Shown here: piece by piece, positions 5,388 through 21,630 of the stretch
How positions within the stretch are numbered: the first letter of the stretch is position 1
Layout: every line of letters begins with the position of its first letter
From: Lysobacterales bacterium
GTDB taxonomy: Bacteria > Pseudomonadota > Gammaproteobacteria > Xanthomonadales > Ahniellaceae
NCBI GenBank assembly: GCA_050173995.1
Contig: JBFXKH010000025.1
Location: forward strand, 5,349-29,348
Length of the DNA: 24,000 nucleotides
Direction: 5' to 3'
Position numbers and translations under genes: made by a program
The notes under the pieces: generated by a model
Seen by the model: the letters and a program-made list of their open reading frames with translations, nothing else
Database searches by the model: none
What the model was told of the DNA's origin: nothing

Positions 5388-5894
5388 ATGAACATCGCCG
5401 ATATCGCCATCCTGATGATCTTCGCTCTGTCCATGCTGATCGGCCTGGTGCGCGGGCTGATGGTCGAAGTGCTGTCGATCGTGATCTGGGTACTGGCCTC
5501 GGTATTGGCCTACCTGCTCGGGCCGGCGCTGGCCGGTTGGTTCGGCAGCCAGGTCGAACTCAATTCCCTGCGCATTTTTCTCGGCTATGGAACGGTTTTC
5601 GTGGCGGTGCTGATCGTCGGCGCGGTGGTGGTGTTCCTGATGAAGAAACTGATCGAAGGCACCGGACTCACCGGCACCGACCGCATGCTCGGCATGCTGT
5701 TCGGCGCCGTGCGCGGCGGCGTACTGGTGGTGATCCTGATCCTGGTGGTTGGCCTCACCCCGATCCCGAACGACGCCTGGTGGCAGCAGTCGCGTGCCGT
5801 CGCGCTGTTCCAGCCGCTGGCCGAACAGGCCCGCGCCTGGTTGCCGTCGAACGTGTCGGACAAAGTGAAGATGGTGCTGCCGGTCAGCGACTGA
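5388..5894 (+). CDS. cvpA: colicin V production membrane protein CvpA
   Basis: 168 aa and polytopic. MNIADIAILMIFALSMLIGLVRGLMVEVLSIVIWVL... is typical CvpA, and the gene sits upstream of purF. Confidence 0.88.
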   Translation: MNIADIAILMIFALSMLIGLVRGLMVEVLSIVIWVLASVLAYLLGPALAGWFGSQVELNSLRIFLGYGTVFVAVLIVGAVVVFLMKKLIEGTGLTGTDRMLGMLFGAVRGGVLVVILILVVGLTPIPNDAWWQQSRAVALFQPLAEQARAWLPSNVSDKVKMVLPVSD

Positions 5895-6151: not shown

Positions 6152-7636
6152 ATGTGCGGCATCATCGGTATCGTTGGACTGAGCGAGGTGGCCGCGGCCC
6201 TGTATGACGGGCTGACGGTGCTGCAGCACCGCGGCCAGGATGCCGCCGGCATCGCCACCATCGACGGCGACCGGCTGCGTCTGCACAAGGCCAACGGGCT
6301 GGTCAAGGATGTGTTCCAGAGCGAGCACATGGCCAGGCTCAAGGGCCGCATCGGCATCGCCCACTGCCGCTATCCGACCGCCGGGTCCGAAGGCGCCGAC
6401 GAGGCGCAGCCGTTCTACGTGAACTCGCCGTTCGGTATCGCGCTCGGCCACAACGGTAATCTGGTCAACACCGCGGAACTGCGCCGCGAGTTGTTTCAGA
6501 CCGACCGTCGCCACATCAACACTGGCTCGGATTCCGAGGTGCTGCTCAATATCTTCGCCCACGAATTGCAGGCGGCCGGCGCCCTGCGCCCGGGCTCGGT
6601 CGATGTGTTCCGCGCGATCGCGGCGGTGCATCAGCGCTGCCAGGGCGGCTATGCCGTGGTCAGCCTGGTGCTCGGTCTTGGCGTGGTCGCCTTCCGCGAT
6701 GTCCACGGTATCCGCCCGCTGGTACTCGGCCGTCGCGACGGCGCCGAAGGCACCGAATGGGCGGTGGCCTCGGAAAGCGTCGCCCTCGATCTGCTTGGCT
6801 TCCGGCTGGAGCGCGACGTGCGCCCAGGCGAGGCGGTGATCCTGACCGAAGACGGCCGCCTGCTCGCCGAACAATGCGCCGCACCCGAGCGGCACACGCC
6901 GTGCATCTTCGAGTACGTCTACCTGGCGCGGCCGGATTCGATGATCGAAGACGTCTCGGTGTACAAGGCCCGACTGCGCATGGGCGAGCGCCTGGCGCAG
7001 AAAATCCGCAGGATCAAACCCGGCCACGACATCGAAGCGGTGATCCCGATCCCGGACACCTCACGCACCGCGGCGCTGGCGCTGGCCCAGGCGCTGGACG
7101 TGAAATACCGCGAAGGCTTCGTCAAGAACCGCTATGTCGGCCGCACCTTCATCATGCCCGGGCAGAGCGAGCGGGTGAAATCGGTGCGGCGCAAATTGAA
7201 CGCGATCGAACTCGAATTCCGCAACAAAGTCGTGCTGCTGGTCGACGATTCGATCGTGCGTGGCACCACCTCGAAGCAGATCATCCAGATGGCCCGCGAA
7301 GCCGGCGCGCGCAAGGTGTATTTCGCCTCGGCGGCGCCGCCGGTGCGCTTCCCCAATGTCTATGGCATCGATATGCCAGCCCCGGCGGAGTTGGTCGCGC
7401 ACGGCCGCAGCGAAACGGAAATCGAGGCGCTGCTCGGCGCCGACTGGCTGATCTATCAGGACCTGGACGACCTGATCGCCGCGGTCGCCGAAGGCAACGA
7501 GGCACTGACCGCTTTCGATAGCAGTTGCTTCAACGGCGAATACGTGACCGAGCTACCCGCCGGCTATCTGGAATCGATCGCCGACCTGCGCGCCGATCAG
7601 GCGCGTGCCGACCGACGCCAGCGGATCGACGCCTGA
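6152..7636 (+). CDS. purF: amidophosphoribosyltransferase
   Basis: MCGIIGIVG... provides the N-terminal nucleophile Cys. [11 protein letters not shown] and the PRTase motif [18 protein letters not shown] are present. 494 aa. Confidence 0.95.
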
Positions 7637-7650
7637 ACGCCACGGTCAGC

Positions 7651-8484
7651 ATGGATACCTTGTCGGCGCGCAGCCTGGCTGCGCTGATGTGTGCCGATCC
7701 CGCGACCAAGATCGCCGCGACCCGCCGCCTGCATGCCGACCGGCAAGCCGGCGCGCTGGCATCGGAACAACCCGCGGCCGCAGCCGCGCCGCCGATCCCG
7801 GTGCCCGGCCGTCCCGAGCGCCCGCTGCTGGTCGCGCCGCGCGAACTGAAAAGTCGTGGACTGGGCAGCGCGATCGGCCGCGCCAGCCTGCTGCACGCGG
7901 TCGCGCATATCGAATTCAACGCGATCAACCTGGCCCTGGACGCGGTCTATCGCTTCCCAGGCATGCCGGAAGCGTTCTACGCCGACTGGCTGCAGGTCGC
8001 CGTCGACGAAGCCCGCCATTTCGACATGCTGGCCACCCGACTGCGCGCCATCGGCCACCACTACGGCGAATTCCCGGCACACAACGGGCTGTGGGCGGCG
8101 GCGTGCAGCACCGCGCATTCCTGCCTGGCGCGCATGGCCCTGGTGCCGCGGGTACTCGAAGCCCGCGGCCTGGATGTCAGCCCAGGCATGATCGAACGCC
8201 TGCGCCGCGCCGGCGACCACGACAGCGCCGCCCTGATCGAAATAATCCTGCACGAAGAAATCGCCCACGTCGCCGCCGGCACCCGCTGGTTCAACTACTG
8301 CTGCCAACAACAACAGCTCGACCCGGATACAACCTTCCTCGCCCTGGTCCGCGAACACGCCGCCGGCATCCTCCGCCCCCCGTTCAACCACAGCGCCCGC
8401 CGCGCCGCCGGCTTCAGCGAAGCCGAACAACTCGGCCTGCAACAACTGCTCGCCGAAGCCCCATCGCCCAAGCCACCGAAGTAG
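7651..8484 (+). CDS. DUF455 family ferritin-like protein
   Basis: ATG at 7651. LLHAVAHIEFNAINLALDAVYRF...DWLQVAVDEARHFDMLATRLRAIGHHYGEFPAHNGLW...VPRVLEARGLDVSP...ILHEEIAHVAAGTRWF matches my recollection of the DUF455 metal-binding helices. Confidence 0.78.
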   Translation: MDTLSARSLAALMCADPATKIAATRRLHADRQAGALASEQPAAAAAPPIPVPGRPERPLLVAPRELKSRGLGSAIGRASLLHAVAHIEFNAINLALDAVYRFPGMPEAFYADWLQVAVDEARHFDMLATRLRAIGHHYGEFPAHNGLWAAACSTAHSCLARMALVPRVLEARGLDVSPGMIERLRRAGDHDSAALIEIILHEEIAHVAAGTRWFNYCCQQQQLDPDTTFLALVREHAAGILRPPFNHSARRAAGFSEAEQLGLQQLLAEAPSPKPPK

Positions 8485-8534
8485 GATGGGCCCTTCGCCA
8501 TGCTCAGGACAGGCAAAGCGCAGCGTGCCCATCG
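8481..8534. repeat. REP-like hairpin element (GTAGGATGGGC...GCCCATCG)
   Basis: The inverted arms are gatgggc (8485-8491) and gcccatc (8526-8532), around ...aagcgcagcg... A related motif (gtaggctggcggtaagcgcagcgaaccccagcatc) appears on the minus strand at ~21857-21891. Confidence 0.5.
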
Positions 8535-8719
8535 ACCGCCCAACCTCCACACCTCAAGCGAATCGCGAACCAGGGTGCGCTGCCGCCCGCTCGCATCGAA
8601 AGCACGCCCTGCCTGGTGAGTGAAAGCAGTTCAGCCCCAACCCGATCCTTATCGGGCGCAGTGAGGGTCGGCTGCGGGGTTTTATCCGCGATGCCGTGGC
8701 TTGCCAAGGAAAATTCGAC

Positions 8720-11700
8720 ATGTGGAAAATCGTGCGTGGTCTGTTGGGTCTGGGTCTTGCGTCTGCGCTTTGGGCAACGGCCAAGGCCGAACCCTGGTCG
8801 GTGCTGGCCGACCCCGACCCGCAGCCGGTGGCGACGTTCTCACCCACGGCGTTGTCCGAAATGCGTGCCGATGGTTATTGGGCATCGGGTTTCGCGCAGA
8901 ATCCGGCGGATGGATCGACCTCGGCAGCGGTCGGTCGTTTCGATGCGAACGGCAACTTGCAGCGTTGGTCCTTCGATGGCGGATTCTCAAAAAAACTTCT
9001 GGCCGATGGTGGCTTCGTCTACGCCAGCGTGCGCGAGACCGAAGGGCCGTCGACTGAATTTCCCCGAACGTTCTGCATGGTGGTTCGGGTAAGCGCGGAC
9101 GGTCGGACGCAGTGGCAGACGGTGCTCGACGGAAGATTTTGCCACGCAGTCGAAATCGACGCGGCTGGCGAGATATGGGTCGGCGTCAGCGACAACGTGA
9201 TCCCCGATCAGTCCAACTTCCTCAACATGGATAACATCACCGTCGCGCAGGTGGTGCGCCTGCACGATGACGGCCGTATCGCGGCGCGTATCGCGCTTGA
9301 TGTCCCGTCACAGCGCGTGGTCGAGATGCGCGCCGACCCGGCTGGTGCGGGCGTGTTTTTGGCCGTCCACCACGCCGAGCCCGGCAAGCCGCAGGCGGTG
9401 CGAATCGGCGTTCGGCGATTGCGTGCGGACGGCAGTGTCGATTGGCAGTGGCAATCGGGCAAGTTGGCGGCGGCGAGCGGCAATCATGCGTTGGCGAGCG
9501 GCATCACCCAATTCCGGGTATCGGCGAGCGCCGGCATCTTCGCCATCAGTAGCCGGTTTTCGTCGGACCCATCCATCGGCAACGCCAAGGACTGGCTGGC
9601 GGTGGGCTTGAGCCTGGCCGGCGTGCCGCGCTTCGACAAGACCATCAGCTTCGACAATGCCGTGTACGTTGCTGGGGTCAGCGCGCCGGACGCGGCCGGC
9701 CTGTGGCTGGTGGTGGCATGGGGTAACCGCAGCGACGGGGCGCAGGGCGGCAAGGTCGCCGTGGCACGGCTGTCTGGCGCCGGCAAGCTGGGTTCCAGCC
9801 ACCGGATCGATAACGCCCAGGACTGCATCTGCCAGTTGGCCCTGCGTCGGGACGGCGGCCTGTGGTTATCGGTCTTCGACCGAACCGCCATCCTCGTCGG
9901 TGTCGATGCCAAGGGCCGCGAGCACGCGCGGCTGGATGGCATCAGTCAAGGTCCGTTCGACCTGTTGTCCGACGACCGCGCCCTGGTCATCACCGGCGGC
10001 TCGCGATCGCAACCGATGCGGGCGGTGCGGGTCGGATTCGACCAGCCGAACGAGCCCTGGCCGCAGTTGACGCTGCCGGTGCGTCGGCGGTTGGTTTCGG
10101 TTGAAGCAGTAGCCAGCGACGGCGGGGTCGCGCAATGGGAAGAGCTGCCTTCGCCGGATGGCAACGCGATCACCTCGGCGTTGACCTTTCGCAGCAGCGA
10201 TACCGCCCCTGTCGCGTGGCGGATCGCGTTTCCGTTTTACGGCGACATCCGCCTGAGCGTTTCGCGCAGCATGCTGTGCCTGTCTGGCATGTTGCGTGAT
10301 AGCAACATCCGGGATTTTGTTCTGCAGTGTCGCCGCCGAGCTGATGGCAGCGTGCTCTGGCAAGATGTCCGACCACTGCAACCGGGCGAGTTCATAAACC
10401 GGTTCCTGGACGTCACCGCGCTGGACGATGGCGGTGCGGTGGCGATCCGTGGCGTGCTCGGCAGCGTGCAGCATTGGCTGATTGGCGATGATGGCCAGGT
10501 TCTGTCCGAACAAACGCTCCCCTTGCTTGGTTCCTCCCAGCAGGAACTGGAAATCACGCGTGCGAACATCAACACCCATGGCGATACCCTGCTCGCCAGT
10601 TTTGATAGTACAAAACGTGACGGCATCCTGCTGCGCCTGGATCGTGATGGCCAGGAACGCTTCCGGACGGCGTTCGAAGGTGTTTTCTTGACCTATGGCG
10701 ATATCACTCAGGATCGACTCGCTTTTGCGGACGATGCTGGCGCGATCATGTACGGCAGCGTGATCACACGCTATTCGGCGAATGGTGAGAAGCTTTGGGA
10801 ACTGGTGCCCGATCGACCGATCGTCGATCTGGTCGTGGATGGCGATACGATCGTGTACAGCATGCGTTCGGACGATCAATTTACCTTCGCGTTGGTACCG
10901 GGCAACTGGGAGCTGGTGGCCGTGGACAGCGCCAGCGGTGGCGAGCGCTGGCGCTTGCCGCTCGACGCTTCGTTCCGCCAGTCGGCCAGCATCGCAGCGT
11001 TGGCTGGGCGGCGCCTGGCGGTTTTGCAGACCGAGACCAGCCATCTGCGTTACCGCGAGTTGGATGTCGCCACCGGCACGCCGCTGCGCGAGCAGACCGA
11101 TGTCTGCGGCGGTGAATCGTGCGGTTGCGAAACCAATGCCTGCCGCCCGCGACCCCTTCGGCCGGGCGCGATTGCCCGGCCGACGCTGTCGCTGCAACCG
11201 GCCGCTTTAGGCCTGCGCGCCCGGCTCGATACGTTTCAGCTCGGGGCCGGCTGGGGATCGAGCGTTCTGGAACTGGCCGATGCCGGTCAGGATCCGGCCA
11301 CGGTGCGCGCCGATCAAGCGGGCATCAACGGCGCCTGGTTTGCGCCCTGGGCCAACGGCCAGGGGCTGGTGTTCGACTGGATCGCGGACGCTCGCATCCT
11401 GTTCGCCCCGTGGTTCACCTTTGCTCCGGAAGGCGGCAACGACCCGAGCGGGCTGCGCTGGTACACCCTGCAAGGCGAATTGGCCGATCCCAGTACGGGC
11501 GCGACGCTCGGCATCTTCAGCAATGAAAGCGGTCGCTTCGGCGTCGGCATCAGCGCGCCGCGGCAGGTGGGTTCGGCCGAGCTCAGCTTCGAGAGTTGCG
11601 AGCGCGCGCAATTTCGCTACCAATTCGACCCCGACGAAAACCACGGCTTGCGTGGCCTGGTCACCCTGTCGCGGCTGACGCCGGGCCTCGCCTGCAGCGA

Positions 11701-12722: not shown

Positions 12723-12986
12723 AGTTTTCCTACAAGCAACGATCCTGGCGCTGTGATAGGCTGCGGGAACACATGGCGATTCGTCGCCGACTGGGTGGTT
12801 GGCAGCACAAACAACTAAACTCGCACTTGCCGAAACGCGGAAATCGCGTCTCTCAGAGGTGGCCTCCTGAGACTGATGATGGCGGGCTATACACATGCGG
12901 TATTTGGCCCCGCGGGTTTCCTGCTAGGGTTTGTAGTTACCGAGGTGATCGCTCTTCTATCTGAAATCACAAAGGAGGATATGCAC

Positions 12987-13187
12987 ATGGTCCAAAAGGC
13001 AGCCGTATCAAGTGGGAAGCAGCTATGGTCATGCGTCAAAAGTTCTACCAAGCGCCTCATCGCGTTTTGGGAGGCTCACCTTCCTTACAGGCAAAGCCTG
13101 CTGATGAGCTTGTGCAACTCAAGCGAAAAGGCCCTGAGATTGCTGCCTAACAATTCGTTCAAGGCGGACGCCTCCGGCGCCGCTTAA
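12987..13187 (+). CDS. hypothetical small protein (cassette 1)
   Basis: AAAGGAGG at 12971-12978 sits 8 nt before ATG 12987. The 66-aa product is MVQKAAVSSGKQLW.... The C-terminal codons (LPNNSFKADASGAA) are encoded by the attC itself. A longer in-frame start at 12876 would add a hydrophobic N-terminus but lacks an SD. Confidence 0.45.
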   Translation: MVQKAAVSSGKQLWSCVKSSTKRLIAFWEAHLPYRQSLLMSLCNSSEKALRLLPNNSFKADASGAA

Positions 13188-13201
13188 CTCAAACGTTAGG
13201 C
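13145..13201 (+). repeat. attC site 1 (57 bp)
   Basis: GCCTAAC aattcgttcaaggcggacgcctccggcgccgcttaactcaaac GTTAGGC. R'' (RYYYAAC) and R' (GTTRRRY) flank an imperfect internal palindrome. Closely resembles the aadA-type 59-base element as I recall it. Confidence 0.85.
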
Positions 13202-13216
13202 CACTATGGAGGCCAT

Positions 13217-13582
13217 GTGATCACCATAAAGACAGGAAGATTCGACGTCCTAGAAACCAAGACGCTACTTATTCCTGGCCTGGGCGAAACCAAGATTACG
13301 ATCAATCATGGCATTGAAGAAATTTCGTTCATCTTTGATTTTCGTATCGATGATAAATCGGAGCAGCAGCTCAACTATGAGTTGGTAGATGATCAACAGC
13401 TCCGCATAGTACTTATAAATTGGGGTGGCCCTTTCCCCACAACTCCTATTGAGCCGGTTCCAGTAGGAACAATTGGCAACAGAGAACTCTTTATTCTTTT
13501 TTCAGCTGCTAAGGCGGGAGACAAGGCGGAGATTCGCCAGCTAACCTTTACGGCCCTCCTGGGGGAGGTCGCAAATGGCTAA
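13217..13582 (+). CDS. hypothetical 121-aa soluble protein (cassette 2, gene 1)
   Basis: GTG at 13217 lies 4 nt after GGAGG (13208-13212). The sequence alternates hydrophobic and polar residues and looks beta-rich (ITIKTGRFDVLETKTLLIPGLGETKITINHG...LRIVLINWGG...). I recognise no family. Lower GC than the surrounding core DNA. Confidence 0.65.
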   Translation: MITIKTGRFDVLETKTLLIPGLGETKITINHGIEEISFIFDFRIDDKSEQQLNYELVDDQQLRIVLINWGGPFPTTPIEPVPVGTIGNRELFILFSAAKAGDKAEIRQLTFTALLGEVANG

Positions 13583-13841
13583 GTTGGTCGTACGTACGAG
13601 CGTTTCGGCTCCTACTGAAATCAACATCCCGTTGATCCGTGCGGATCATGCACACACCTCCCATGTATTCAGAACCTGCTTCGAAGTCTCTCTCTCTATC
13701 TTTTCAACTCTCCTAGGCTACGTGTTGGGCCTCTCAAGTACCATTCGCATCCATTGGGTGTTTCTCGGCGTATTTGCGCTTGCCACACTCGCATTTCTCG
13801 CTCTCTCTTACAGAGCTAGCAGCACTGCAAAAGTGGCCTAA
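13575..13841 (+). CDS. hypothetical 88-aa membrane protein, two predicted TM helices (cassette 2, gene 2)
   Basis: The ATG at 13575 overlaps the upstream stop (ATGGCTAA, 8-nt overlap). Hydrophobic stretches are FEVSLSIFSTLLGYVLGL and IHWVFLGVFALATLAFLAL. The stop TAA lies inside the R'' box of attC 2. Confidence 0.6.
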   Translation: MAKLVVRTSVSAPTEINIPLIRADHAHTSHVFRTCFEVSLSIFSTLLGYVLGLSSTIRIHWVFLGVFALATLAFLALSYRASSTAKVA

Positions 13842-13892
13842 CTATTCATTCAATCCGACGCCTTTGGCGCGGCTTAGCTCAAGACGTTAGCT
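13836..13892 (+). repeat. attC site 2 (57 bp)
   Basis: GCCTAAC tattcattcaatccgacgcctttggcgcggcttagctcaagac GTTAGCT. Its R'' GCCTAAC is complementary to the TTAGGC that starts this cassette at 13196. Confidence 0.85.
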
Positions 13893-13896
13893 GTCA

Positions 13897-14745
13897 ATGA
13901 GAGGTTCTCAGCACATGGATAAACAGCAGGCACTAGATCAGCTGGACAAGTTCAAACATCGTCTGGTCGCTGATGTGGCAGGTGCGTACGCGCAGCGTGG
14001 CTCTGACTTTGGGCGAGAGCGCTTTGCTGCTTGGCGACGCCAGATCGATAAGTTCCTAGACGAGAATCTTCCCGGCGCACGCGCAATGCTGGACAAAAAA
14101 TTGGACCACGGCGTCTTCTTTCGTGGCAGATCAGAGGGCGACTATGATGTATTCATGCGCGAGGATGGAGGGCCATCTTTGGCATTAATCGACTCTCTTT
14201 GTTTAGACATCAAGAATGACGAGTACGATTTTTCACGAGAAGTACCCCATCAGAACGCTGCTGAAACAAAAAAAGCAAGGAAATCTGCCCCAGAGAATTC
14301 AACTCGAGTATTCATTGTCCACGGTCATGATGAAACTTTAAAGACAAAGGCGGCGCGGTTTGTTGAAAAGTTAGGGTTAAAAGCGGTAATTCTTCATGAG
14401 CAGGCCAATCAGGGCCATACAATTATTGAGAAAATTGAGGCGCACACAGATGTAGGGTTCGCAATCGTTCTATACACACCAGATGATGCTGGTAGCACCC
14501 AGGCAGAAGCCAAAGCTGGAACACTGAAGCCAAGAGCAAGGCAAAACGTCGTTTTTGAACACGGCTACCTCATCGCCAAACTTTCACGGGCAAGAGTAGT
14601 TCCTCTGGTGGCAGCAAAATTAGAACTTCCAAGCGACATTAGCGGTGTCGTTTACGTGGACGACACGAACTGGCAAATAGATATTGCAAAGGAAATGAAA
14701 GCCGCTGGCTACAGTATTGACTTCAATAAGCTAGTTGACAGCTAA
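13897..14745 (+). CDS. TIR-like domain protein (CAP12/PycTIR-type, COG4271-like) with uncharacterised N-terminal helical domain
   Basis: The C-terminal ~140 aa read RVFIVHGHDETLKTKAARFVEKLGL..VILHEQANQGHTIIEKIE...GFAIVLYTPDD...ARQNVVFEHGYLIAKLSRARVVPLV...ELPSDISGVVYV. This matches the bacterial TIR-like family, including the conserved Glu (E221, codon 14557-14559). The N-terminal ~135 aa have no motif I recognise. An alternative start is ATG 13915. The stop TAA lies in the R'' of attC 3. Confidence 0.82.
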   Translation: MRGSQHMDKQQALDQLDKFKHRLVADVAGAYAQRGSDFGRERFAAWRRQIDKFLDENLPGARAMLDKKLDHGVFFRGRSEGDYDVFMREDGGPSLALIDSLCLDIKNDEYDFSREVPHQNAAETKKARKSAPENSTRVFIVHGHDETLKTKAARFVEKLGLKAVILHEQANQGHTIIEKIEAHTDVGFAIVLYTPDDAGSTQAEAKAGTLKPRARQNVVFEHGYLIAKLSRARVVPLVAAKLELPSDISGVVYVDDTNWQIDIAKEMKAAGYSIDFNKLVDS

Positions 14746-14799
14746 CAAGTCATTCAAGCCGACGCCGCTTCGCGGCGCGGCTTAATTCAGGCGTTAGGC
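14740..14799 (+). repeat. attC site 3 (60 bp)
   Basis: AGCTAAC aagtcattcaagccgacgccgcttcgcggcgcggcttaattcaggc GTTAGGC. Its R'' AGCTAAC is complementary to the TTAGCT that starts this cassette at 13887. Confidence 0.88.
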
Positions 14800-15221: not shown

Positions 15222-15282
15222 GGTTCGACCTTTCGCTCAAGCCGACGCCGCTTCACGGCACGGCCCACTTCAGGCGTTCGCC
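15222..15282 (+). repeat. degenerate attC-like element A
   Basis: ggttcgacctttcgctCAAGCCGACGCCGCTTCACGGCACGGCCCACTTCAGGC GTTCGCC. The central palindrome and a GTT-type R' box are conserved. The R'' position reads GGTTCGA, not RYYYAAC. Confidence 0.4.
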
Positions 15283-15288
15283 ACCACC

Positions 15289-15436
15289 ATGCAGGTCTCC
15301 GGCATCTGTCATTTCAATCTGCGAGCGCCGCGCGAGCTGCTCGATTCTCTGCGCGACTTCTACTGAGAGGTCGTTGGCCTTTCGGTCGGCGTTCGCCCGG
15401 CGTTCTCCAGCTTCGGCTACTCGGCAGCAAGGACGT
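15289..15436 (+). pseudogene. truncated duplicate of the VOC/glyoxalase gene
   Basis: MQVSGICHFNLRAPRELLDSLRDFY is followed by a stop at 15364-15366. Nucleotide homology to 16479-16636 continues past the stop with an ~11-nt deletion, then is lost at ~15437. Confidence 0.75.
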
Positions 15437-15519
15437 CGTCGTCGATGGCGAGTGTCGTGCGCATGATCGGCTCCTGATGGCGCACACCGTACTTCAGGCA
15501 TCGCGTCAACAAGCCAGGA

Positions 15520-15732
15520 TTATGCAGCGATGTCGATGTACTCAACTACACTGGCAGGCGCCGGAATCGGCATTCCGTCTTCACGCAACCCGGCGATGTG
15601 AAAGGCGATGGCCTCCCGGATATCGCGCTCTACGTCAGCCACCGTCGCGCCGGTTGCTATGCAGCCCGGAAGGTCGGGGACATAGGCGGAATAATTGCCC
15701 GGGGCTTGCTCAATCACTACGGCAAAACGCAT
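15520..15732 (-). CDS. hicB: HicB-family antitoxin (short, UPF0150-type)
   Basis: MRFAVVIEQAPGNYSAYVPDLPGCIATGATVADVERDIREAIAFHIAGLREDGMPIP is the canonical HicB N-terminal domain. It starts 5 nt downstream of the hicA stop codon. Confidence 0.85.
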   Translation of the reverse strand: MRFAVVIEQAPGNYSAYVPDLPGCIATGATVADVERDIREAIAFHIAGLREDGMPIPAPASVVEYIDIAA

Positions 15733-15737
15733 CGGGT

Positions 15738-15938
15738 CTACCTCTTCAGGCCAGCCTGCTTAAGGATGCTGTCGATTGTACCAGCGCCAAGGTCATCGCT
15801 GGGTTTTCCGGCAACCGTGACCCGGCCAGGCTTCGCAGGATGTTTGAACTGCCTATGGCTACCGCGAGTTGCCACCAAGACCCAGCCATCGTCCTTGAGG
15901 CGACGCAGAACTCCGCTGACTTTGGCGGTTGGCGGCAC
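15738..15938 (-). CDS. hicA: HicA-family mRNA interferase toxin
   Basis: VLRRLKDDGWVLVATRGSHRQFKHPAKPGRVTVAGKPSDDLGAGTIDSILKQAGL carries the HicA signature, including GSH-x-F-x-HP. The GTG start at 15938 lies 7 nt after GGGAGG. Confidence 0.85.
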   Translation of the reverse strand: MPPTAKVSGVLRRLKDDGWVLVATRGSHRQFKHPAKPGRVTVAGKPSDDLGAGTIDSILKQAGLKR

Positions 15939-16033
15939 CCAGGAACCTCCCTATCGAAAACCTATCGTCCGGCATCGCCTGCGGGCGAAAGCCGGTAAAG
16001 GCCGCAGTCGCTGGTCGGAGGCACGCAGTTGTT

Positions 16034-16225
16034 GGACGAAGCCGTTACGCGGAGGAAGCCTACTGCGGCACCTGTTCGGTCAGGATGATACATCGCCGCC
16101 ACGGTCGGTGGATCGCCAAAATCAGCGGCTGTGGTGATCGGTGGAACCCAGACGCGCTGGCGCTTGCTGCGCCAAGATACTGGCCCATGGAGTGCGTCGC
16201 TGCGCGCCGCTTGGTCTGAACCGAT
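16034..16225 (+). repeat. ~190-bp dispersed element, copy 1
   Basis: Aligns by eye at about 70-75% with 18957-19146 (ggacgaagccg.tacgcgga..aagcc..actgcggc.cctgt..gg..aggatgatac...). In both places it abuts the 5' side of a minus-strand toxin module. Confidence 0.55.
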
Positions 16226-16636
16226 CGCCGGCTCGACCCGATTCCACCGTTCCGGCCAAAACGTGGTTGTCCAACTGCCGTCTGTTGTCCGACTGCCGTC
16301 CTCCGACTGCCGACTGCCGTCCCGCCAACTGCCGTCCTCCATCGATCCAAGGGCCGCGGTATGATTTTGGCTGCACGGCCGCTGACTTGGGGTTTGGTAT
16401 TTTTCGCGGCTGGTTCGATCTTCCGTCCAAGCCGACACCGCTTCACGGCACGGTCCACTTCAGGCGTTTGCCACCACCATGCAGGTCTCCGGCATCTGTC
16501 ATTTCAATCTGCGCGCCCCGCGCGAGCTGCTCGATGCTTTGCGCGATTTCTACTGCGACATTGTTGGCCTTTCGGTTGGCGCTCGCCCGGCGTTCTCCAG
16601 CTTCGGCTACTGGCTCTACGCCGGCAGCAAGGATGT
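16201..16636 (+). repeat. direct repeat copy B (~436 bp)
   Basis: Partner of 15041-15436. It contains a longer heptamer run (16270-16345), attC-like element B, and the 5' end of the intact VOC gene. Confidence 0.8.
16412..16472 (+). repeat. degenerate attC-like element B
   Basis: ggttcgatcttccgtcCAAGCCGACACCGCTTCACGGCACGGTCCACTTCAGGC GTTTGCC, which ends 6 nt before the VOC ATG. Confidence 0.4.
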
Positions 16637-16889
16637 CCTTCATCTCACCGAGGCGCGGCCAGGCGAGCAGCGCTGCACGGGCCGTGCCGCAACTTTCGAT
16701 CATGTTGCGTTCGCCTGCACCGATGCTGCCGCCTACCGGGTCAGGCTGCAGGCAGCCGGCATCGCCTTCACCACCGATACCGTTCCAGGCACGGGCCAAC
16801 TGCAGATGTTCTTCACCGATCCCGCCGGCAATGGCGTCGAAATCAATTTCGCCGGGTCGGCTGACGCCTCCGTCAGAGCAACCGTGTAG
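16479..16889 (+). CDS. VOC family protein (glyoxalase/bleomycin-resistance/dioxygenase fold)
   Basis: 136 aa. ICHFNLRAPRELLDALRDFYCDIVGL...FDHVAFAC.D......RL...GI.F........G..QMFFTDPAGNGVEINF is the typical paired beta-alpha-beta-beta-beta VOC pattern. Confidence 0.85.
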   Translation: MQVSGICHFNLRAPRELLDALRDFYCDIVGLSVGARPAFSSFGYWLYAGSKDVLHLTEARPGEQRCTGRAATFDHVAFACTDAAAYRVRLQAAGIAFTTDTVPGTGQLQMFFTDPAGNGVEINFAGSADASVRATV

Positions 16890-17292
16890 GCGGGCGAGGC
16901 GCGTCGGGACGGGTCGGCTGCAACGGATGGCTGGCCGCCTGCCGCGCCAGCACGAAGCCCTCGCCGGATTCGGAATTCACTGGCAACAGCGCACGAGCCG
17001 CGAGCACTTGCGCGACAAGAATGTTTGGAATGGCGGCGCGGCCTTGCCGCCACGGCTTGGCAAGCGTGGGCGGGAGCCAGGTAACCTTTGGCGCAAGAGC
17101 GAGCTGATCGAGTTCAAGTGCAAGCGGTTGCTCGTCGGCGGAGAAGAACGCCGAAGCAACCTGCGCACTGTCGTCGGCAGCGTTGACGTGGACACAGTCA
17201 TCACGACGGTCAGCGGCGCAGCGCGGTAGCACCCCGGTTGCGAGTGCAACCTGCCAATCGGAAAGCGATGTAATGCGAAAAATCGAAGACAT
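16873..17292 (-). CDS. DUF952-like protein
   Basis: MSSIFRITSLSDWQVALATG....CVHVNAADDSAQVASAFF....PLALELD resembles the DUF952 pattern (I-x-H/R-I...W...G...FIH-S...Q......F). The 3' end overlaps the convergent VOC gene by 17 nt, and the C-terminal extension may be spurious. Confidence 0.5.
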   Translation of the reverse strand: MSSIFRITSLSDWQVALATGVLPRCAADRRDDCVHVNAADDSAQVASAFFSADEQPLALELDQLALAPKVTWLPPTLAKPWRQGRAAIPNILVAQVLAARALLPVNSESGEGFVLARQAASHPLQPTRPDAPRPPTRLL

Positions 17293-17304
17293 GGGATGCG
17301 CGGC

Positions 17305-18144
17305 CTAATGTCTAATCGCAGCGGTGGGTTTGCCAGAGCATCGTACTGCAAGCGCGCCGGTCTTCTGGACCTGCCCTGGTGGCCCACACCGGCCGTCGTC
17401 GAGGAATTGCGAGATCAGCGTGCCGATCCTGGACTGTAGCTCGGTGGGGCCATGGTCGTTCATGTCGTTATGACGGGCGCCGGCGATTGCCGTGATACAC
17501 GTGCCGGCATTCGCTTCCTGCGCTGTGGGTAGAACACCAGGGTCCGCCTCGAAGTCGCTGCCACGAATCGACAGGACTTTGATCGACCGGCTCCGGGGAA
17601 GCGGGTATCTGCGATGGTCGAGCGTGACCAGCGCCGTCGCAAGCGCAGGAGACCGATGTACGAAAAGGGCCGAAATGTCTCCCCCGTTCGAGTGGCCGAC
17701 CAGCGTTAACCGAGACCAGTCAAAGCCAGTGTGTGTACGGGACAGGGCGTCACGCACGAAGTGAAGATTCTCGACGCCACGATGCCACGCCGGCATGCGA
17801 CTGGCGAATAGGTCGCCGGACCTGCTTAGCGGGGCGTCGGTAGGCAGGTCGTGTTGAATGGCCACAACCAGGTAGCCAGATCGTGCCAGTGTGGCGGCGA
17901 CAAACGAGTAGTCAGTGTGGCGCAGGCCATAGCCAGGGCTTAGCAAAGCGACCGGGCATGGCCTGTCACGGATGCAGTCGTGCGGACGCGCCGGGAAATA
18001 AACTGCGATCGGAATGTGCCGGTCACGGCTTGCATCCCATAGCTCGGCCGACTCGGTAAGTCTTGAACCGCCCGCAGCTGTGGTTGCGCAGGCCACCAAA
18101 GCGACCAGCACCAGCAGTGTCGCAAATCTCATCAGTGCTTTCAT
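17305..18144 (-). CDS. alpha/beta hydrolase lipoprotein
   Basis: The signal peptide has a lipobox (LLVLVALVAC). The nucleophile elbow is LVGHSNGG, and a late ARHNDM supplies a probable catalytic His. 279 aa. Confidence 0.8.
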   Translation of the reverse strand: MKALMRFATLLVLVALVACATTAAGGSRLTESAELWDASRDRHIPIAVYFPARPHDCIRDRPCPVALLSPGYGLRHTDYSFVAATLARSGYLVVAIQHDLPTDAPLSRSGDLFASRMPAWHRGVENLHFVRDALSRTHTGFDWSRLTLVGHSNGGDISALFVHRSPALATALVTLDHRRYPLPRSRSIKVLSIRGSDFEADPGVLPTAQEANAGTCITAIAGARHNDMNDHGPTELQSRIGTLISQFLDDGRCGPPGQVQKTGALAVRCSGKPTAAIRH

Positions 18145-18171
18145 GGGGGCTGAGAGTTGAAGTTTTGTCGC

Positions 18172-18516
18172 TCAGGGCGACAACGCCAGCACCAGCCGCA
18201 GGCCTTCATCGACTTGTGACATGGCCTTGCCGGAGAGCGACCTGACTTTGGACGCGAGCAAAGCGCGATCCAAGGTGATGAGTTGCGAGACGTTGATTAC
18301 CGAGGCTCTCGGCAACCCCGATTCGGACCTGGCCAAACGCACATTGCCCGGTGCCGCTGCCAAGGCCAGGTTGGACGTGACGACAGCCACGATGACGGTC
18401 CCTATGCGACTTTCATTGAATGCCTGCGATTGCACAACCAGCACCGGACGTCGGAAGCCTGGATCGGAGCCGGTAGCTGCAGGCAGCGACGCCCACCACA
18501 ACTCACCACGCTTCAT
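18172..18516 (-). CDS. mazF: MazF/PemK-family toxin endoribonuclease
   Basis: MKRGELWWASLPAATGSDPGFRRPVLVVQSQAFNESRIGTVIVAVVTSNLALAAAPGNVRL....GLPRASVINVSQLITLDRALL is the canonical PemK/MazF pattern. ATG at 18516; the track's TTG at 18522 is less likely. Confidence 0.88.
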   Translation of the reverse strand: MKRGELWWASLPAATGSDPGFRRPVLVVQSQAFNESRIGTVIVAVVTSNLALAAAPGNVRLARSESGLPRASVINVSQLITLDRALLASKVRSLSGKAMSQVDEGLRLVLALSP

Positions 18517-18531
18517 CTGCAACCGAACTCG

Positions 18532-18870
18532 TCAGGCTGCATCTGCGGGCGTGCGCAAGAACCCCACTGCAATGGCAAAGACCACGGTCAACAGCAGTAC
18601 CTCGGCCAACCCGGCGCCAGCCACCAGCAGAAGCGTTCTCGCTTCCTCCTCCGCGACTATCGATAGTTTCGTCAGCTCCTCAATCCCAACCAAGATAAGA
18701 AACAGCAGAACGTATAGCAACACGGGGATGATCGAATAAAAGAAGAACAACCAAGCTGCCTTGAATCTGCGCATCACGCCGCTGCGCACTTGTCCGATCT
18801 GTCGCGCGAAGACGCCGACCGGCACCAGGATGATCGACCAGAATAGCAGCGACAGCAAATGCTCTCTCAT
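18532..18870 (-). CDS. hypothetical 112-aa membrane protein with three predicted TM helices, in the antitoxin position upstream of mazF
   Basis: ATG at 18870 lies 4 nt after AGGAGG. The hydrophobic segments are LLSLLFWSIILVPVGVFA, AAWLFFFYSIIPVLLYVLLFLILVGI and TLLLVAGAGLAEVLLLTVVFAIAVGFL. Its stop lies 15 nt before the mazF ATG. Local GC is lower than the flanks. Confidence 0.6.
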   Translation of the reverse strand: MREHLLSLLFWSIILVPVGVFARQIGQVRSGVMRRFKAAWLFFFYSIIPVLLYVLLFLILVGIEELTKLSIVAEEEARTLLLVAGAGLAEVLLLTVVFAIAVGFLRTPADAA

Positions 18871-18905
18871 CCGGCCTCCTGGGTACACCAAGTAGTGGCT
18901 TCGCA

Positions 18906-18958
18906 GCCCGACGCCTGAGCCAAGCCGCGAAGCGGCTGCGGCTTGAATGAACCGCTGG
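18906..18958 (-). repeat. attC-like element in reverse orientation
   Basis: The minus strand reads ccagcggTTCATTCAAGCCGCAGCCGCTTCGCGGCTTGGCTCAGGC GTCGGGC, which parallels attC 3 (..GTCATTCAAGCCGACGCCGCTTCGCGGCGCGGCTTAATTCAGGC GTTAGGC). The boxes are degenerate. Confidence 0.4.
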
Positions 18959-19146
18959 ACGAAGCCGCTACGCGGACAAAGCCCCACTGCGGCGCCTGTG
19001 CGGCGAGGATGATACCTCTCCCCCACGGCCGATGGCTGGCCAAGGCAACAACGGATGGGGCGATCGGCGGAACCCGGCTGCGCTGGCGTTGGCTGTGCCC
19101 AGGTGCGGACCTTTGGAGTGCGGCGCTACGCGCCGCTTTGGATGCT
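18957..19146 (+). repeat. ~190-bp dispersed element, copy 2
   Basis: Partner of 16034-16225. Its 3' part forms the left arm of the 19111-19204 palindrome. Confidence 0.55.
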
Positions 19147-19204
19147 CTACTGGCAGCGACTGACGCAAAGCATCCAAAGCGGCGCCGAGCGCCGCACGCC
19201 AAAA
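19111..19204. repeat. long imperfect palindrome (~36-bp arms, 22-nt loop)
   Basis: A perfect 17-bp core pairs GCGCCGCTTTGGATGCT (19130-19146) with AGCATCCAAAGCGGCGC (19169-19185). The arms extend through gtgcggcgct/agcgccgcac (19118-19127 / 19188-19197) and ctttgg/ccaaa, with small bulges. Confidence 0.8.
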
Positions 19205-19367
19205 TACCCGCCGGTGCCGATGGGCTCGAACACATCGGCACCGCGCTCGATGTGGGCCATTGCGGCGGTCTGGTCGCTGCATGTGCCATGCCCGACCAGG
19301 CCAGCTGTGGGCCTGTGTGAGTGCCCGCAGTGCCCCAATCAACGACCACACCACCAACCTACGGTCC

Positions 19368-19389
19368 GGATCGTGGCCGCGCACGATCC
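19368..19389 (-). terminator. candidate stem-loop downstream of the XRE gene
   Basis: GGATCGTG-gccgcg-CACGATCC lies 12 nt past the stop codon. There is no U-tract, so function is uncertain. Confidence 0.25.
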
Positions 19390-19400
19390 AAGCCTATTCG

Positions 19401-19655
19401 TCAGGCGGCTGAATCCAGTTGCCAGCCGGGAAAAGCAAGAACCGCCGGGTGGCAATGCAGCGCAGCGCCCAACACCTTGGCACGCTCTACGCCCAAATTG
19501 ACCCGACCCGTTTCGATGCTGGAGATGGTTGTTTGTGGGATGCCGCAAAGCGCGGACAGTTCATTCTGGCTGAGCCCCTGCAGTTCGCGAATGATGCGAA
19601 CGGACTCGCCAGGCGTAACGTCGACGCGCTTTTTGGCTGGAATTGGTTTGCTCAT
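19401..19655 (-). CDS. XRE-family helix-turn-helix protein (HigA-like antitoxin/regulator)
   Basis: ATG at 19655 lies 7 nt after GGAGG. IRELQGLSQNELSALCGIPQTTISSIETGRVNLGVERAKVLGAAL is a canonical XRE HTH. 84 aa. Confidence 0.8.
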   Translation of the reverse strand: MSKPIPAKKRVDVTPGESVRIIRELQGLSQNELSALCGIPQTTISSIETGRVNLGVERAKVLGAALHCHPAVLAFPGWQLDSAA

Positions 19656-19656
19656 T

Positions 19657-19842
19657 TCAGCGCCTCCGATAGTCATGAGCTGTGACACGCGCTACTTGAA
19701 CGACCATGACGCCAGCCTTGATCCGGAGGCTTGCGATGCTGCGATCAATGCGCTTGATTTGTCGAAGCGCTGATGAGCGCTGGACCCCCACATAGCGCGT
19801 CGCGTCGGTTTCCGGAAGACGCGCACCACTCTCGTCACCCAT
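19657..19842 (-). CDS. hypothetical 61-aa ORF translationally abutting the XRE gene (possible small toxin or decayed RelE/HigB-like gene)
   Basis: Its stop TGA ends 1 nt before the XRE ATG. The segment SSALRQIKRIDRSIASLRI loosely recalls the N-terminal A-x-K-x-L-K-K-L-D helix of RelE/ParE toxins. The ORF is too short for a full RelE fold. Confidence 0.3.
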   Translation of the reverse strand: MGDESGARLPETDATRYVGVQRSSALRQIKRIDRSIASLRIKAGVMVVQVARVTAHDYRRR

Positions 19843-19867
19843 GCCGACCTCGCGTTGTCTTTAGCTG

Positions 19868-20476
19868 TTACCGTTGTGCATACCGAGTGGCCAACGCGCA
19901 TAAATGTTTGCGTGTGCGCGCAAGACTCGGGGAACGTTGCGCCGCCCGAGTCGGGGACCACTGGGTACGAACCATCTCGCAAAGTCTGGCGTTATATCCC
20001 AGCCCCTGCGAGGCAATGGCGTTTCGTCGCACCACTAAATCTTCGCGTACTGCACGATGCGCCTTTTCCGCGATTCCCAACAATGTTCGTTTCGGGTCGC
20101 TCAGGCCATCGGGATTCTCGGGCAGGGAGCGGATACGCGTTCCCATCAGGGTGCGCAACCCCTCGTGATCGGCAATGATCCATGACTCGATTTCCCGCAC
20201 TGCCACCCTGAACACCAGTCCTGCTGGCTGCGCAATATCTTGCAGCCAATTGGCAATCAGTGTCGGCGCACATTTGGATTGGTCGAGATCGGTGATAAGG
20301 AACACGGGTTCATGCGCTGCCATCCGACAGAAGTTTCCGATGCGGCTCCGCAGGTACCCCGATCCACCTCGTCGAAGGCATTGGTGCGCGTGCAACCCCA
20401 CTTCAGCGGCGAGACAAAGCCCCACCTGCTCGCTGAGCTCATCTTCGGTTGCGAGCGTGATCCCACTCACTGCCAC
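19868..20476 (-). CDS. DUF4276-like protein (Toprim-like fold, putative nuclease partner of the ATPase)
   Basis: About 200 aa. The motifs ITLATEDELSEQV (acidic N-terminal strand), PVFLITDLDQSKCAPTL (DxD-like), FRVAVREIESWIIADHEGL and NPDGLSDPKRTLL match my recollection of DUF4276 proteins. The GTG start at 20476 or 20470 overlaps the ATPase stop by 10 or 4 nt. Confidence 0.65.
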   Translation of the reverse strand: MAVSGITLATEDELSEQVGLCLAAEVGLHAHQCLRRGGSGYLRSRIGNFCRMAAHEPVFLITDLDQSKCAPTLIANWLQDIAQPAGLVFRVAVREIESWIIADHEGLRTLMGTRIRSLPENPDGLSDPKRTLLGIAEKAHRAVREDLVVRRNAIASQGLGYNARLCEMVRTQWSPTRAAQRSPSLARTRKHLCALATRYAQR

Positions 20477-21630
20477 AGCCCCAGCTGCGCTGCCGCGCTG
20501 GGACGGGCCTTTGGAAGCACTACTTCGGCAACAGACAGCCCGCTCAGCAACGCGCTGCTTTCCCTTTCGTCAAGGACGCGCACAACAGTTCCCTCGGGCG
20601 CCGCCACCAGCAACAGGACGCCGCGTCCATCTATGCCCGGATTGCTCAGCAATGCCTCACTGTGCGTACTGATAAAAACCTGCCTCGAACGGCGTTTTTT
20701 ATCGCGCTGAATTCGTTGCAGCAGAAGTGGGATTTGGCGAACGATTGCATCATTCAGCGACAACTCGGGCTCTTCGAGGAGCAACAGAGAGTCCCCTTCG
20801 AGGAGCACCCACAACAATCCAAGGAGGCGCAAAGTTCCGTCCGAGAAGTGTTCCTCGCGCTGCCAGCCTGCGTTGGGCCGATGGTGTGCGTAACGGGCCT
20901 CCAAGTGTGGCCTTCCGCTAACTTTATCCGGTGTGAATCGAAGTTCTACGAATTGCGGGACGGCCAGTTTCAAGGCTTGCCCGATCTTCTTCAAGCGCGA
21001 CTCGCGCGCGCGATCCTGGGTCTTGGCAACACGCTCCAAGAAGCCTTGGCCGAACGGATCATCCTCGAGTAATTTTCCACCGAGCTGATCGGCGTACTTG
21101 AGTAACTGCGGGACTAGATGAAGATATGTTGCCTCGCCAAAAAATTCGGCAATTGCTCGAAACTTCGCGTTTGCCTGGATCTGCTCCAACGCGGTCTGTG
21201 TCAGCCGCATTGGATCCTTCTTGTCGGTCTTCGGGTTAGGCCGATCCAGCAGGAGCTTGCCACCGCGAAAGACTTGCTCAACGGAGATGAGAGTGCGCTG
21301 CGCGCCCTTTCCCTCAGGCTTGAATCCCAACACATATCGCCACGTCTCGGCCCCATCCTCAGCGCTGTCGGCAAGATCCACCTCGATCCGAACTTCGGGA
21401 TCTTTGCGCGCATGCAGGCAACGTAGTTTTTGGATTCCACCTCGATCATGGATCGCTTTTTGCAATCCACCACCATGCGGCTTGCAAACATCGCGCAGGA
21501 ATCGGAATACATCCAAAAAATTGGACTTGCCCGACGCATTTGCCCCAAGCAGGTACGTGCGCTCATGCAGCGGCACGTCCACGGCGCGAAAGTTGCGCCA
21601 GTTCTTGAGCTTGAGATGGGTCACTATCAT
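20467..21630 (-). CDS. ABC-type AAA ATPase (AAA_15/AAA_21-like, OLD/AriA/GajA/PtuA-type head)
   Basis: MIVTHLKLKNWRNFRAVDVPLHERTYLLGANASGKSNFLDVFRFL contains Walker A. FSDGTLRLLGLLWVL is signature-like, DSLLLLEEPELSLN is Walker B, and VFISTHSEALL is the H-loop. GGAG lies 10 nt upstream of the ATG at 21630. Confidence 0.85.
   Translation of the reverse strand: MIVTHLKLKNWRNFRAVDVPLHERTYLLGANASGKSNFLDVFRFLRDVCKPHGGGLQKAIHDRGGIQKLRCLHARKDPEVRIEVDLADSAEDGAETWRYVLGFKPEGKGAQRTLISVEQVFRGGKLLLDRPNPKTDKKDPMRLTQTALEQIQANAKFRAIAEFFGEATYLHLVPQLLKYADQLGGKLLEDDPFGQGFLERVAKTQDRARESRLKKIGQALKLAVPQFVELRFTPDKVSGRPHLEARYAHHRPNAGWQREEHFSDGTLRLLGLLWVLLEGDSLLLLEEPELSLNDAIVRQIPLLLQRIQRDKKRRSRQVFISTHSEALLSNPGIDGRGVLLLVAAPEGTVVRVLDERESSALLSGLSVAEVVLPKARPSAAAQLGLWQ

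Follow-up and report, generated by a model that had tools for sequence, protein, structure and literature searches.

A mobile two-gene integron cassette that pairs a DUF6864 beta protein with a small two-helix membrane protein, with a possible role in phage defence

The prophage-borne RexA/RexB system of phage lambda consists of a soluble sensor and a small membrane effector, RexB, which has four transmembrane helices. In Cap15, a CBASS/Pycsar protein with a structure in the PDB, two transmembrane helices are fused to a small beta-barrel. Integrons are known to store small defence systems as cassettes, about one in three of which contains transmembrane helices, and cassettes encoding single small transmembrane proteins have been reported to give phage resistance. 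Cassettes with two open reading frames (ORFs) are also known, both for toxin-antitoxin (TA) and for defence functions (bioRxiv 10.1101/2024.07.02.601719). In this study, we analysed a stretch of 24,000 nucleotides (nt) from a Lysobacterales bacterium (contig JBFXKH010000025.1), referred to below as the window, which contains an integron cassette with two overlapping genes. Gene 1 encodes a soluble beta protein of the Pfam family DUF6864, and gene 2 encodes a small membrane protein with two predicted transmembrane helices. A two-ORF cassette as such is less unusual than the initial annotation of the window had supposed, since cassettes of this type are documented. The pairing of these two genes recurs on integron cassettes, on a phage and on plasmids, and we infer, tentatively and with less than even confidence, that the pair is a membrane-acting phage-defence module of the abortive-infection type.

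The cassette and the features that define it are as follows.
13145 to 13201, plus strand: attC 1, with cores R'' GCCTAAC and R' GTTAGGC (nhmmer E 8.4e-15), the 3' end of the upstream cassette
13196 to 13886, plus strand: the two-gene cassette itself (691 bp), delimited by the sites attC 1 and attC 2
13206 to 13220, plus strand: mini-ORF ATG GAG GCC ATG TGA, overlapping the Shine-Dalgarno sequence GGAGG
13217 to 13582, plus strand: gene 1, GTG start, TAA stop, 121 amino acids (aa)
13561 to 13582, plus strand: coupling junction, made up of the Shine-Dalgarno sequence GGGGGAGG (13561-13568) within the last codons of gene 1 and the start/stop overlap ATGGCTAA
13575 to 13841, plus strand: gene 2, ATG start, TAA stop, 88 aa
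13836 to 13892, plus strand: attC 2, with cores R' GTTAGCT and R'' GCCTAAC (nhmmer E 1.9e-14), the 3' end of the two-gene cassette

The recombination point of attC 1 lies in G|TTAGGC (13195-13201) directly after the G, at 13195/13196, and this cut is the start of the cassette. The description of a single cassette with two ORFs in the initial annotation was borne out, as the cassette is bounded by attC sites at 13196-13886 and all of the sequence features lie where they had been placed. Gene 1 has the Shine-Dalgarno sequence GGAGG at 13208-13212, and its last 8 nt, ATGGCTAA (13575-13582), overlap gene 2. On these sequence features the two genes can be taken as translationally coupled. Coupled expression had been proposed from the overlap, and the proposal holds well beyond the window, with a start/stop overlap of always either 8 or 14 nt kept in 10 of 10 loci (described below). 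Because only 20 nt lie between the attC junction and the start of gene 1, expression must come by read-through from upstream. The mini-ORF had been suggested to couple translation from the attC junction. It is present at 13206-13220, but the suggested coupling found no support, as the mini-ORF is absent from the homologous 5' leaders of L001/L002 and L009, which have no ATG in that frame. Given this lack of conservation, it has probably arisen by chance.

The pairing was examined in 10 independent DUF6864 loci, namely the window, L001/L002, L003, L004/L005, L007, L008, L009/L010, L015/L016, L017/L018 and L019. Three of them, L001/L002 (Lysobacter sp. F6437), L003 (Comamonas brasiliensis) and L004/L005, were found from homologues of gene 2 and have DUF6864 directly upstream, and six (L007, L008, L009/L010, L015/L016, L017/L018 and L019) were found from homologues of DUF6864 and have a gene 2 homologue directly downstream. 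Co-occurrence of the two genes had been set beforehand as a refuting test, and their homologues were found together in all 10 loci, each time with gene 2 directly downstream of DUF6864 and overlapping its stop codon. A GGAG-rich tract lies within the conserved LGEEV codons of gene 1 across the same loci. Locus pairs that are more diverged in one gene tend to be so in the other (r = 0.46, Mantel p about 6e-4), and the mean identities of the two genes over all 45 pairs are similar, at 0.50 for gene 2 and 0.46 for gene 1. When the window is compared with L001, gene 2 shows 65% identity in nucleotides and 70% in amino acids, against only 42% for gene 1. At unsaturated dS, the dN/dS ratios were 0.08-0.5, except for a value of 0.71 (gene 2, L004 against L008); dS is saturated for most pairs, and dN/dS is informative for a minority only. 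Conservation and selection thus speak for both ORFs, which are present in at least 10 independent loci with dN/dS mostly in the range given, and both are real genes, under purifying selection where it is measurable. In wider searches, a DUF6864 scan of 185,579 species-representative genomes with a single narrow pattern matched only Comamonas brasiliensis, and similar scans of JGI metagenomes and IMG/VR gave nothing, an absence that means little as these scans are limited by the pattern. A gene 2 scan of IMG/VR, also limited by its search pattern, gave nothing, and tblastn of the window proteins against a plasmid collection gave no match.

The contexts of the pair are mostly mobile. Three arrays, those of the window, of L001/L002 and of L009/L010, carry the pair as a single attC-bounded cassette with the same boundaries, and in L001 and L002 this same cassette stands behind different upstream attC sites. 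The pair adjoins integrases in L003 and L004, is carried on a circular 52.9-kb contig with type IV secretion system and ParA genes in L015, and lies between insertion sequence (IS) elements with differing flanks in L017 and L018. The setting of L007 is chromosomal, between a TonB-dependent receptor and dehydrogenases. These sequence contexts show genes 1 and 2 to be inherited and moved as a unit.

Gene 1, for which no recognisable family had been seen, matches Pfam DUF6864 (PF21732) from end to end (E 1.8e-17, 63.6 bits versus a gathering cut-off of 27, profile positions 1-114 of 114), and 53 homologues were found. The upstream partners in the related loci are all full-length members of the family as well. 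DUF6864 has no annotated function and is not mentioned in the searchable literature, and the fixed pairing of this family with a small two-helix membrane protein therefore appears to be unreported. The highest 19-residue Kyte-Doolittle average of gene 1 is 0.9, as expected of a soluble protein, and the AlphaFold2 model built on a 48-sequence alignment (pLDDT 92.5, pTM 0.84) consists of eight strands and no helix. Both results agree with the soluble, alternating-strand character originally ascribed to it, and gene 1 is a cytoplasmic protein. Foldseek comparison of the model with the PDB gave nothing better than an E value of 0.2 or a TM-score of 0.32, and a profile search of PDB sequences gave no match at E<=10. 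The sole structural relative detected is an uncharacterised protein of Siphoviridae sp. ctlIg4 in BFVD (TM-score 0.83, E 2.6e-9). The residues conserved in gene 1 are T6, F17, G23, T25, F38, F42, N68, W69, P80, G84, R89, L91, G101, R107, Y114, G116 and V118. Across 48 sequences N68 is invariant, and W69, P80 and G84 are nearly so. The most conserved stretch is the following.
13418 to 13468, plus strand: residues N68-G84 of gene 1, NWGGPFPTTPIEPVPVG, mostly a loop that joins strands 5 and 6
In the model, residues 68-80 lie outside any strand, and the motif is recognisable in the more distant phage and Pantoea homologues of DUF6864 described below; this loop is a candidate binding surface. The conserved polar residues are T6, T25, N68, R89 and R107, and no Asp, Glu, His, Cys or Ser of the active-site type is conserved. 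This lack of conserved catalytic-type residues suggests a binding protein rather than an enzyme.

For gene 2, in contrast to gene 1, the statement that neither protein could be assigned to a family holds: Pfam, NCBIfam, PADLOC and PHROGs contain no model that matches it. It has 11 close homologues at 55-71% identity, and an exhaustive profile search of 1.84 billion proteins returned 99 cluster representatives at E<=1e-3. Thus, gene 2 belongs to a real but uncatalogued family. Its predicted organization is as follows.
13575 to 13670, plus strand: polar N-tail of gene 2, residues 1-32, conserved
13671 to 13733, plus strand: predicted first transmembrane helix (TM1), residues 33-53
13749 to 13811, plus strand: predicted second transmembrane helix (TM2), residues 59-79, after a 5-residue loop
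The AlphaFold2 model (pLDDT 87) is a helical hairpin, with helices at residues 23-52 and 58-85 and an extended N-tail, and the Kyte-Doolittle averages peak at 1.6 and 2.2, in line with the polar N-terminus and two hydrophobic helices that had been recognised from the sequence. The hydropathy, together with K+R counts of 4.1 in the N-tail, 0.6 in the loop and 3.2 in the C-tail, predicts an N-in/C-in topology in the inner membrane, with a 5-residue outer loop. Conservation among 66 sequences is highest in the cytoplasmic N-tail and at the beginning of TM1 (P13, R22, D24, R33, F36, usually E37, and G48), with the N-tail motif AP.EINIPL[VI]RADH..S.VFR and with the acidic E37 near the cytoplasmic end of TM1. 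Gene 2 is unannotated in the two NCBI metagenome-assembled genome records of the window (L012/L013), and its homologues are uncalled in the metagenomic loci L007 (5362-5637) and L008 (5356-5631), yet intact and conserved. Gene callers have thus missed gene 2 in three of the 10 independent loci, so that the family and its pairing with DUF6864 are under-reported in current annotation.

More distant DUF6864 members were found on a phage and on a small plasmid, each with a short protein encoded downstream that combines a polar tail with two transmembrane helices. In Acinetobacter phage Ab105-2phi (KT588075.2), ORF36 is a DUF6864 protein (Pfam E 1.6e-24; PHROG 32866), and 12 nt after it ORF37 encodes a 117-aa protein of this type. 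The circular 2,550-bp plasmid pT88c_D of Pantoea agglomerans (NZ_CP134723.1) was found by tblastn with the DUF6864 family member P0020, and its 109-aa partner protein is 36% identical to ORF37. The two pairs are located as follows.
L011 3854 to 4606 (record 16345 to 17097): ORF36/ORF37 of Ab105-2phi, between a Q-like antiterminator and the terminase
L024 15 to 700, minus strand: DUF6864 and the 109-aa partner of pT88c_D, with a 1-nt overlap
The position of ORF36/ORF37 is that of a moron. More than 40 kb separates the pair from the glycosyl-hydrolase-108 endolysin of this phage (at about 58.8 kb) and from the membrane protein encoded beside it. The pair is kept in a lytic derivative of Ab105-2phi used for therapy studies (MZ514874.1), and the third of the three annotated genes of pT88c_D is an orphan VbhA-family antitoxin. 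Homology of these phage and Pantoea partners to gene 2 was considered and rejected, as hhalign gave a probability of 23%, and we therefore treat them as an analogous second partner subfamily.

The two genes differ in how they occur apart. Gene 1 was never seen without a two-helix partner, in the 10 loci as well as on the phage and the plasmid, though these numbers are small. In contrast, gene 2 was found without an intact gene 1 in three loci recovered through gene 2 from JGI metagenomes. In L025, gene 1 is N-terminally truncated to 97 aa and gene 2 is intact; in L026, the last ~42 codons of gene 1 remain; and in L027, a small replicon with DnaD_N/HTH_36 and DnaG-like genes, gene 1 is wholly absent. 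L025 may be a decayed intI-proximal first cassette. Within L025 1313-2676, a truncated tyrosine recombinase (Phage_int_SAM_4, E 4e-32) is also present, on the opposite strand and ~300 bp from the truncated gene 1 and the intact gene 2. In addition, long-form relatives of gene 2 (P0100, P0112, P0117, P0127 and P0128; loci L020-L022) are low-GC and 175-177 aa in length, and their C-terminal extra soluble domain of ~85 aa has no family match. That this extension is a fused DUF6864 was rejected on an hhalign probability of 0.4%. Upstream of the long form P0117 there is no DUF6864, and its N-tail motif is kept. This asymmetry argues against the simplest model of an upstream antitoxin and a downstream membrane toxin, with the numbers being small.

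The cassette lies in a region of unusual composition within the window. The window has ~65% GC, with a 50% GC island at about 12.5-15 kb, and this island is a short integron cassette array with attC-like sites at 13145-13201, 13836-13892 and 14742-14799. The bottom strands of attC 1 (z -3.3) and of attC 3 (14742-14799; z -3.8) fold as canonical attC hairpins. In the bottom strand of attC 2, the R boxes pair over 5 bp only, and the fold is not better than that of shuffled sequence (z -1.5). The TAA stop codon of gene 2 lies inside the R'' core GCCTAAC of attC 2, and the same placement is seen in L001 and L009. No tyrosine recombinase was found among the genes called within +/-10 kb, and no Pfam integrase match was found in the ORFs upstream of the array. 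With no integron-integrase nearby, the array looks like a CALIN-type cluster, that is, attC sites without an integron-integrase. On its left it is flanked by a housekeeping block (folC, SPOR, cvpA, purF, DUF455 and a 1149-aa PQQ_2 protein) and on its right by a block with HicAB, PemK and an AAA_21 ATPase. The first cassette ORF (12876-13187) encodes a protein of 103 aa that matches no family and has a single hydrophobic segment, at its N-terminus; the ORF continues across R'' of attC 1 and stops within that site. Upstream of this ORF neither an attC nor an attI was detected, so that the array has no defined left edge. Downstream of attC 3 there are weaker attC remnants at 15232-15278, 16425-16470 and 18951-18911 (minus strand), and the stretch 15232-21630 also holds a glyoxalase, a DUF952 protein and an HTH_3 protein between such remnants. 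This stretch resembles an older, degraded portion of the array that contains TA modules. Its other genes are as follows.
15520 to 15938, minus strand: HicB/HicA, among degenerate attC remnants downstream
18172 to 18516, minus strand: PemK toxin, preceded by a 112-aa ORF
20467 to 21630, minus strand: AAA_21 ATPase

Recognised defence genes, identified by PADLOC or Pfam, lie within about 6 kb of the pair in six to eight of the 10 loci, a tally made without a matched background. The neighbours are as follows.
Window, 13897 to 14745 (NCBI start 13915): the next cassette, encoding a TIR protein of 276-282 aa with a CAP12/Pycsar TIR domain (Pfam E 6.9e-37), matching PADLOC PDC-S35 end to end (E 6e-80), with attC 3 at 14742 to 14799
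L009: Drt9 in the same array (PADLOC E 6.5e-198), with attC sites at 5624 to 5680, 6968 to 7026, 7433 to 7491, 8059 to 8117 and 9801 to 9890
L004: PDC-S50 and a type ISP restriction-modification system
L003: a DarG-like macro domain
L019: a type II-A retron
L015: a restriction-modification system
L017: Cas3 nearby
L008: ResIII/T1R genes nearby
The TIR ORF is a candidate defence gene in the form of an integron cassette in an integrase-less array. The gene in L009 encodes a full-length Drt9 reverse transcriptase (8306-9796) and, lying between attC sites, is apparently an integron cassette as well. A functional dependence of the pair on the TIR cassette was rejected, because the TIR gene is absent from all other loci of the pair.

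How, then, could the pair act? In the more specific form of the phage-defence reading, which we hold with somewhat less assurance than the general one, DUF6864 and its two-helix partner would be an undescribed two-gene anti-phage system of the abortive-infection type, made up of a soluble sensor and a membrane executor, with a beta fold without a solved relative. Such a system would be compact enough to travel as one integron cassette, as a prophage moron or as the only cargo of a 2.5-kb plasmid. The membrane hairpin would be the effector, which might oligomerise to permeabilise or depolarise the membrane, or might block phage entry. DUF6864 would be a non-enzymatic cytoplasmic sensor or regulator in contact with the N-tail of gene 2, and a phage-derived cue would turn the effector on. 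The persistence of gene 2 where gene 1 is truncated or lost (L025, L026 and L027) fits an effector that is harmless until triggered. The initial annotation had likened the layout to abortive-infection, holin-like and toxin-immunity pairs; a conflict module of some kind does fit the mobile-element and defence-rich contexts, whereas the holin-like part of the comparison is unlikely to hold, as no locus has an adjacent endolysin. Several points weigh against phage defence. The tally of defence neighbours has no matched control, and mobile elements are rich in defence genes anyway, so that it is suggestive only; L001 and L007 have no recognisable defence neighbour; and neither window protein matches any PADLOC-DB v2.0 model at E<=1. 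That DUF6864 docks on the N-tail is purely conjectural, and since the N-tail motif is conserved in gene 2 copies without DUF6864 (L027 and P0117), the N-tail cannot be a docking site only. Finally, the persistence of orphan gene 2 copies would fit a toxin-immunity module equally well.

In such a toxin-immunity or addiction module, DUF6864 would be harmful and the hairpin protective, and the pair would stabilise the array, plasmid or island that carries it, in an arrangement that resembles an effector gene with its immunity gene behind it more than a classical type II TA pair, in which the antitoxin comes first. The small size, the overlap and the co-inheritance of the two genes would suit this role, as would their being the main cargo of the 2,550-bp plasmid pT88c_D and the presence of HicAB and PemK in the arrays, and gene 1 is never found without its partner while gene 2 survives the loss of gene 1, as orphan immunity or antitoxin genes do. 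We nevertheless regard it as unlikely, though a serious contender: no toxin or antitoxin family was matched in Pfam or NCBIfam, gene 1 has no DNA-binding domain, no conserved catalytic-type residues and no secretion or delivery domain, and the asymmetry comes from a small sample; TA and abortive-infection functions are, moreover, not mutually exclusive. Alternatively, and with a distinctly lower probability, the hairpin may act without abortive infection by blocking phage DNA entry or an envelope step, like Sie or Deva, with DUF6864 as an accessory chaperone or regulator. The moron-type position of the diverged pair in a temperate phage, away from the lysis genes, would be in keeping with such exclusion, as would the gene 2 relatives that stand alone with a conserved N-tail (L027 and the long forms) and the phage resistance reported for single small transmembrane proteins of integron cassettes; but exclusion leaves the constant coupling to DUF6864 with its conserved overlap unexplained, and a periplasmic loop of ~5 residues would be little exposed to an incoming phage. 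The pair may also be mobile cargo unrelated to conflict, for example a small membrane-anchored stress, transport or signalling complex, given that most integron cassettes are of unknown function and that L007 is an ordinary chromosomal setting. This we consider quite improbable, because the pair occurs almost wholly on integron cassettes, a phage, plasmids and sites flanked by IS elements or integrases, its neighbours repeatedly include defence genes, and the family is sparse and patchy, with one match to a single narrow pattern in 185,579 species-representative genomes. A holin/antiholin-type lysis pair is strongly disfavoured. Gene 2 is small, with two transmembrane helices and a charged C-tail, and one long-form relative has an insignificant PHROG holin match (E 0.029), but none of the loci has an endolysin next to the pair, no PHROG holin family matches the window proteins, the lysis genes of Ab105-2phi are more than 40 kb away, and integron arrays and a 2,550-bp plasmid carry the pair too.

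If the pair is indeed a defence or toxin-immunity module, it would provide the first function for Pfam DUF6864 and a new family for the membrane partner, and it would add to the view of integron arrays, including environmental integrase-less ones of Lysobacterales, as stores of defence genes. At 691 bp, the pair is among the smallest two-component candidates, and being only 0.7 kb in length, it can easily be synthesised and tested directly.

Compared with lambda RexA/RexB, the pair is similar in that a soluble protein and a small integral membrane protein are co-expressed from a prophage and other mobile elements. However, the searches detected no resemblance in sequence or fold, both proteins are much smaller, and gene 2 has two transmembrane helices versus the four of RexB. 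Like the type II TA cassettes, of which HicAB and PemK are found downstream, it consists of two small overlapping genes of cassette size on mobile DNA. Unlike them, it matches no toxin or antitoxin family and has no DNA-binding antitoxin domain, one of its partners is an integral membrane protein, and its orphan copies follow the opposite pattern to that of an antitoxin gene placed upstream of its toxin. The combination of a two-helix hairpin with a domain of ~8 strands resembles Cap15 of CBASS/Pycsar, and the neighbouring cassette holds a TIR gene of the CAP12/Pycsar type, whereas here the two parts are separate polypeptides in the opposite order and no cyclase gene is adjacent in any locus. 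A Cap15-like split effector was rejected, with no PDB chain better than E 0.2 or TM-score 0.32 and no CD-NTase/cyclase gene in any neighbourhood. The phage-defence cassettes of integrons (BRiCs of mobile integrons and those of sedentary chromosomal integrons; Kieffer et al. 2025, Darracq et al. 2025) are likewise compact and attC-bounded. In comparison with these, the pair has the defence role of a candidate, matches no PADLOC model, gave no tblastn match in the plasmid collection with the window proteins, and lies in an array without an integrase in the window; at the same time, it adjoins a TIR (PDC-S35) cassette and shares the array of L009 with Drt9. The searchable literature describes neither the fixed pairing, nor its spread over integron arrays, a phage and plasmids, nor the apparent absence of solved structures related to the fold; the architecture itself, a soluble partner with a small membrane protein on mobile elements, is of a known kind.

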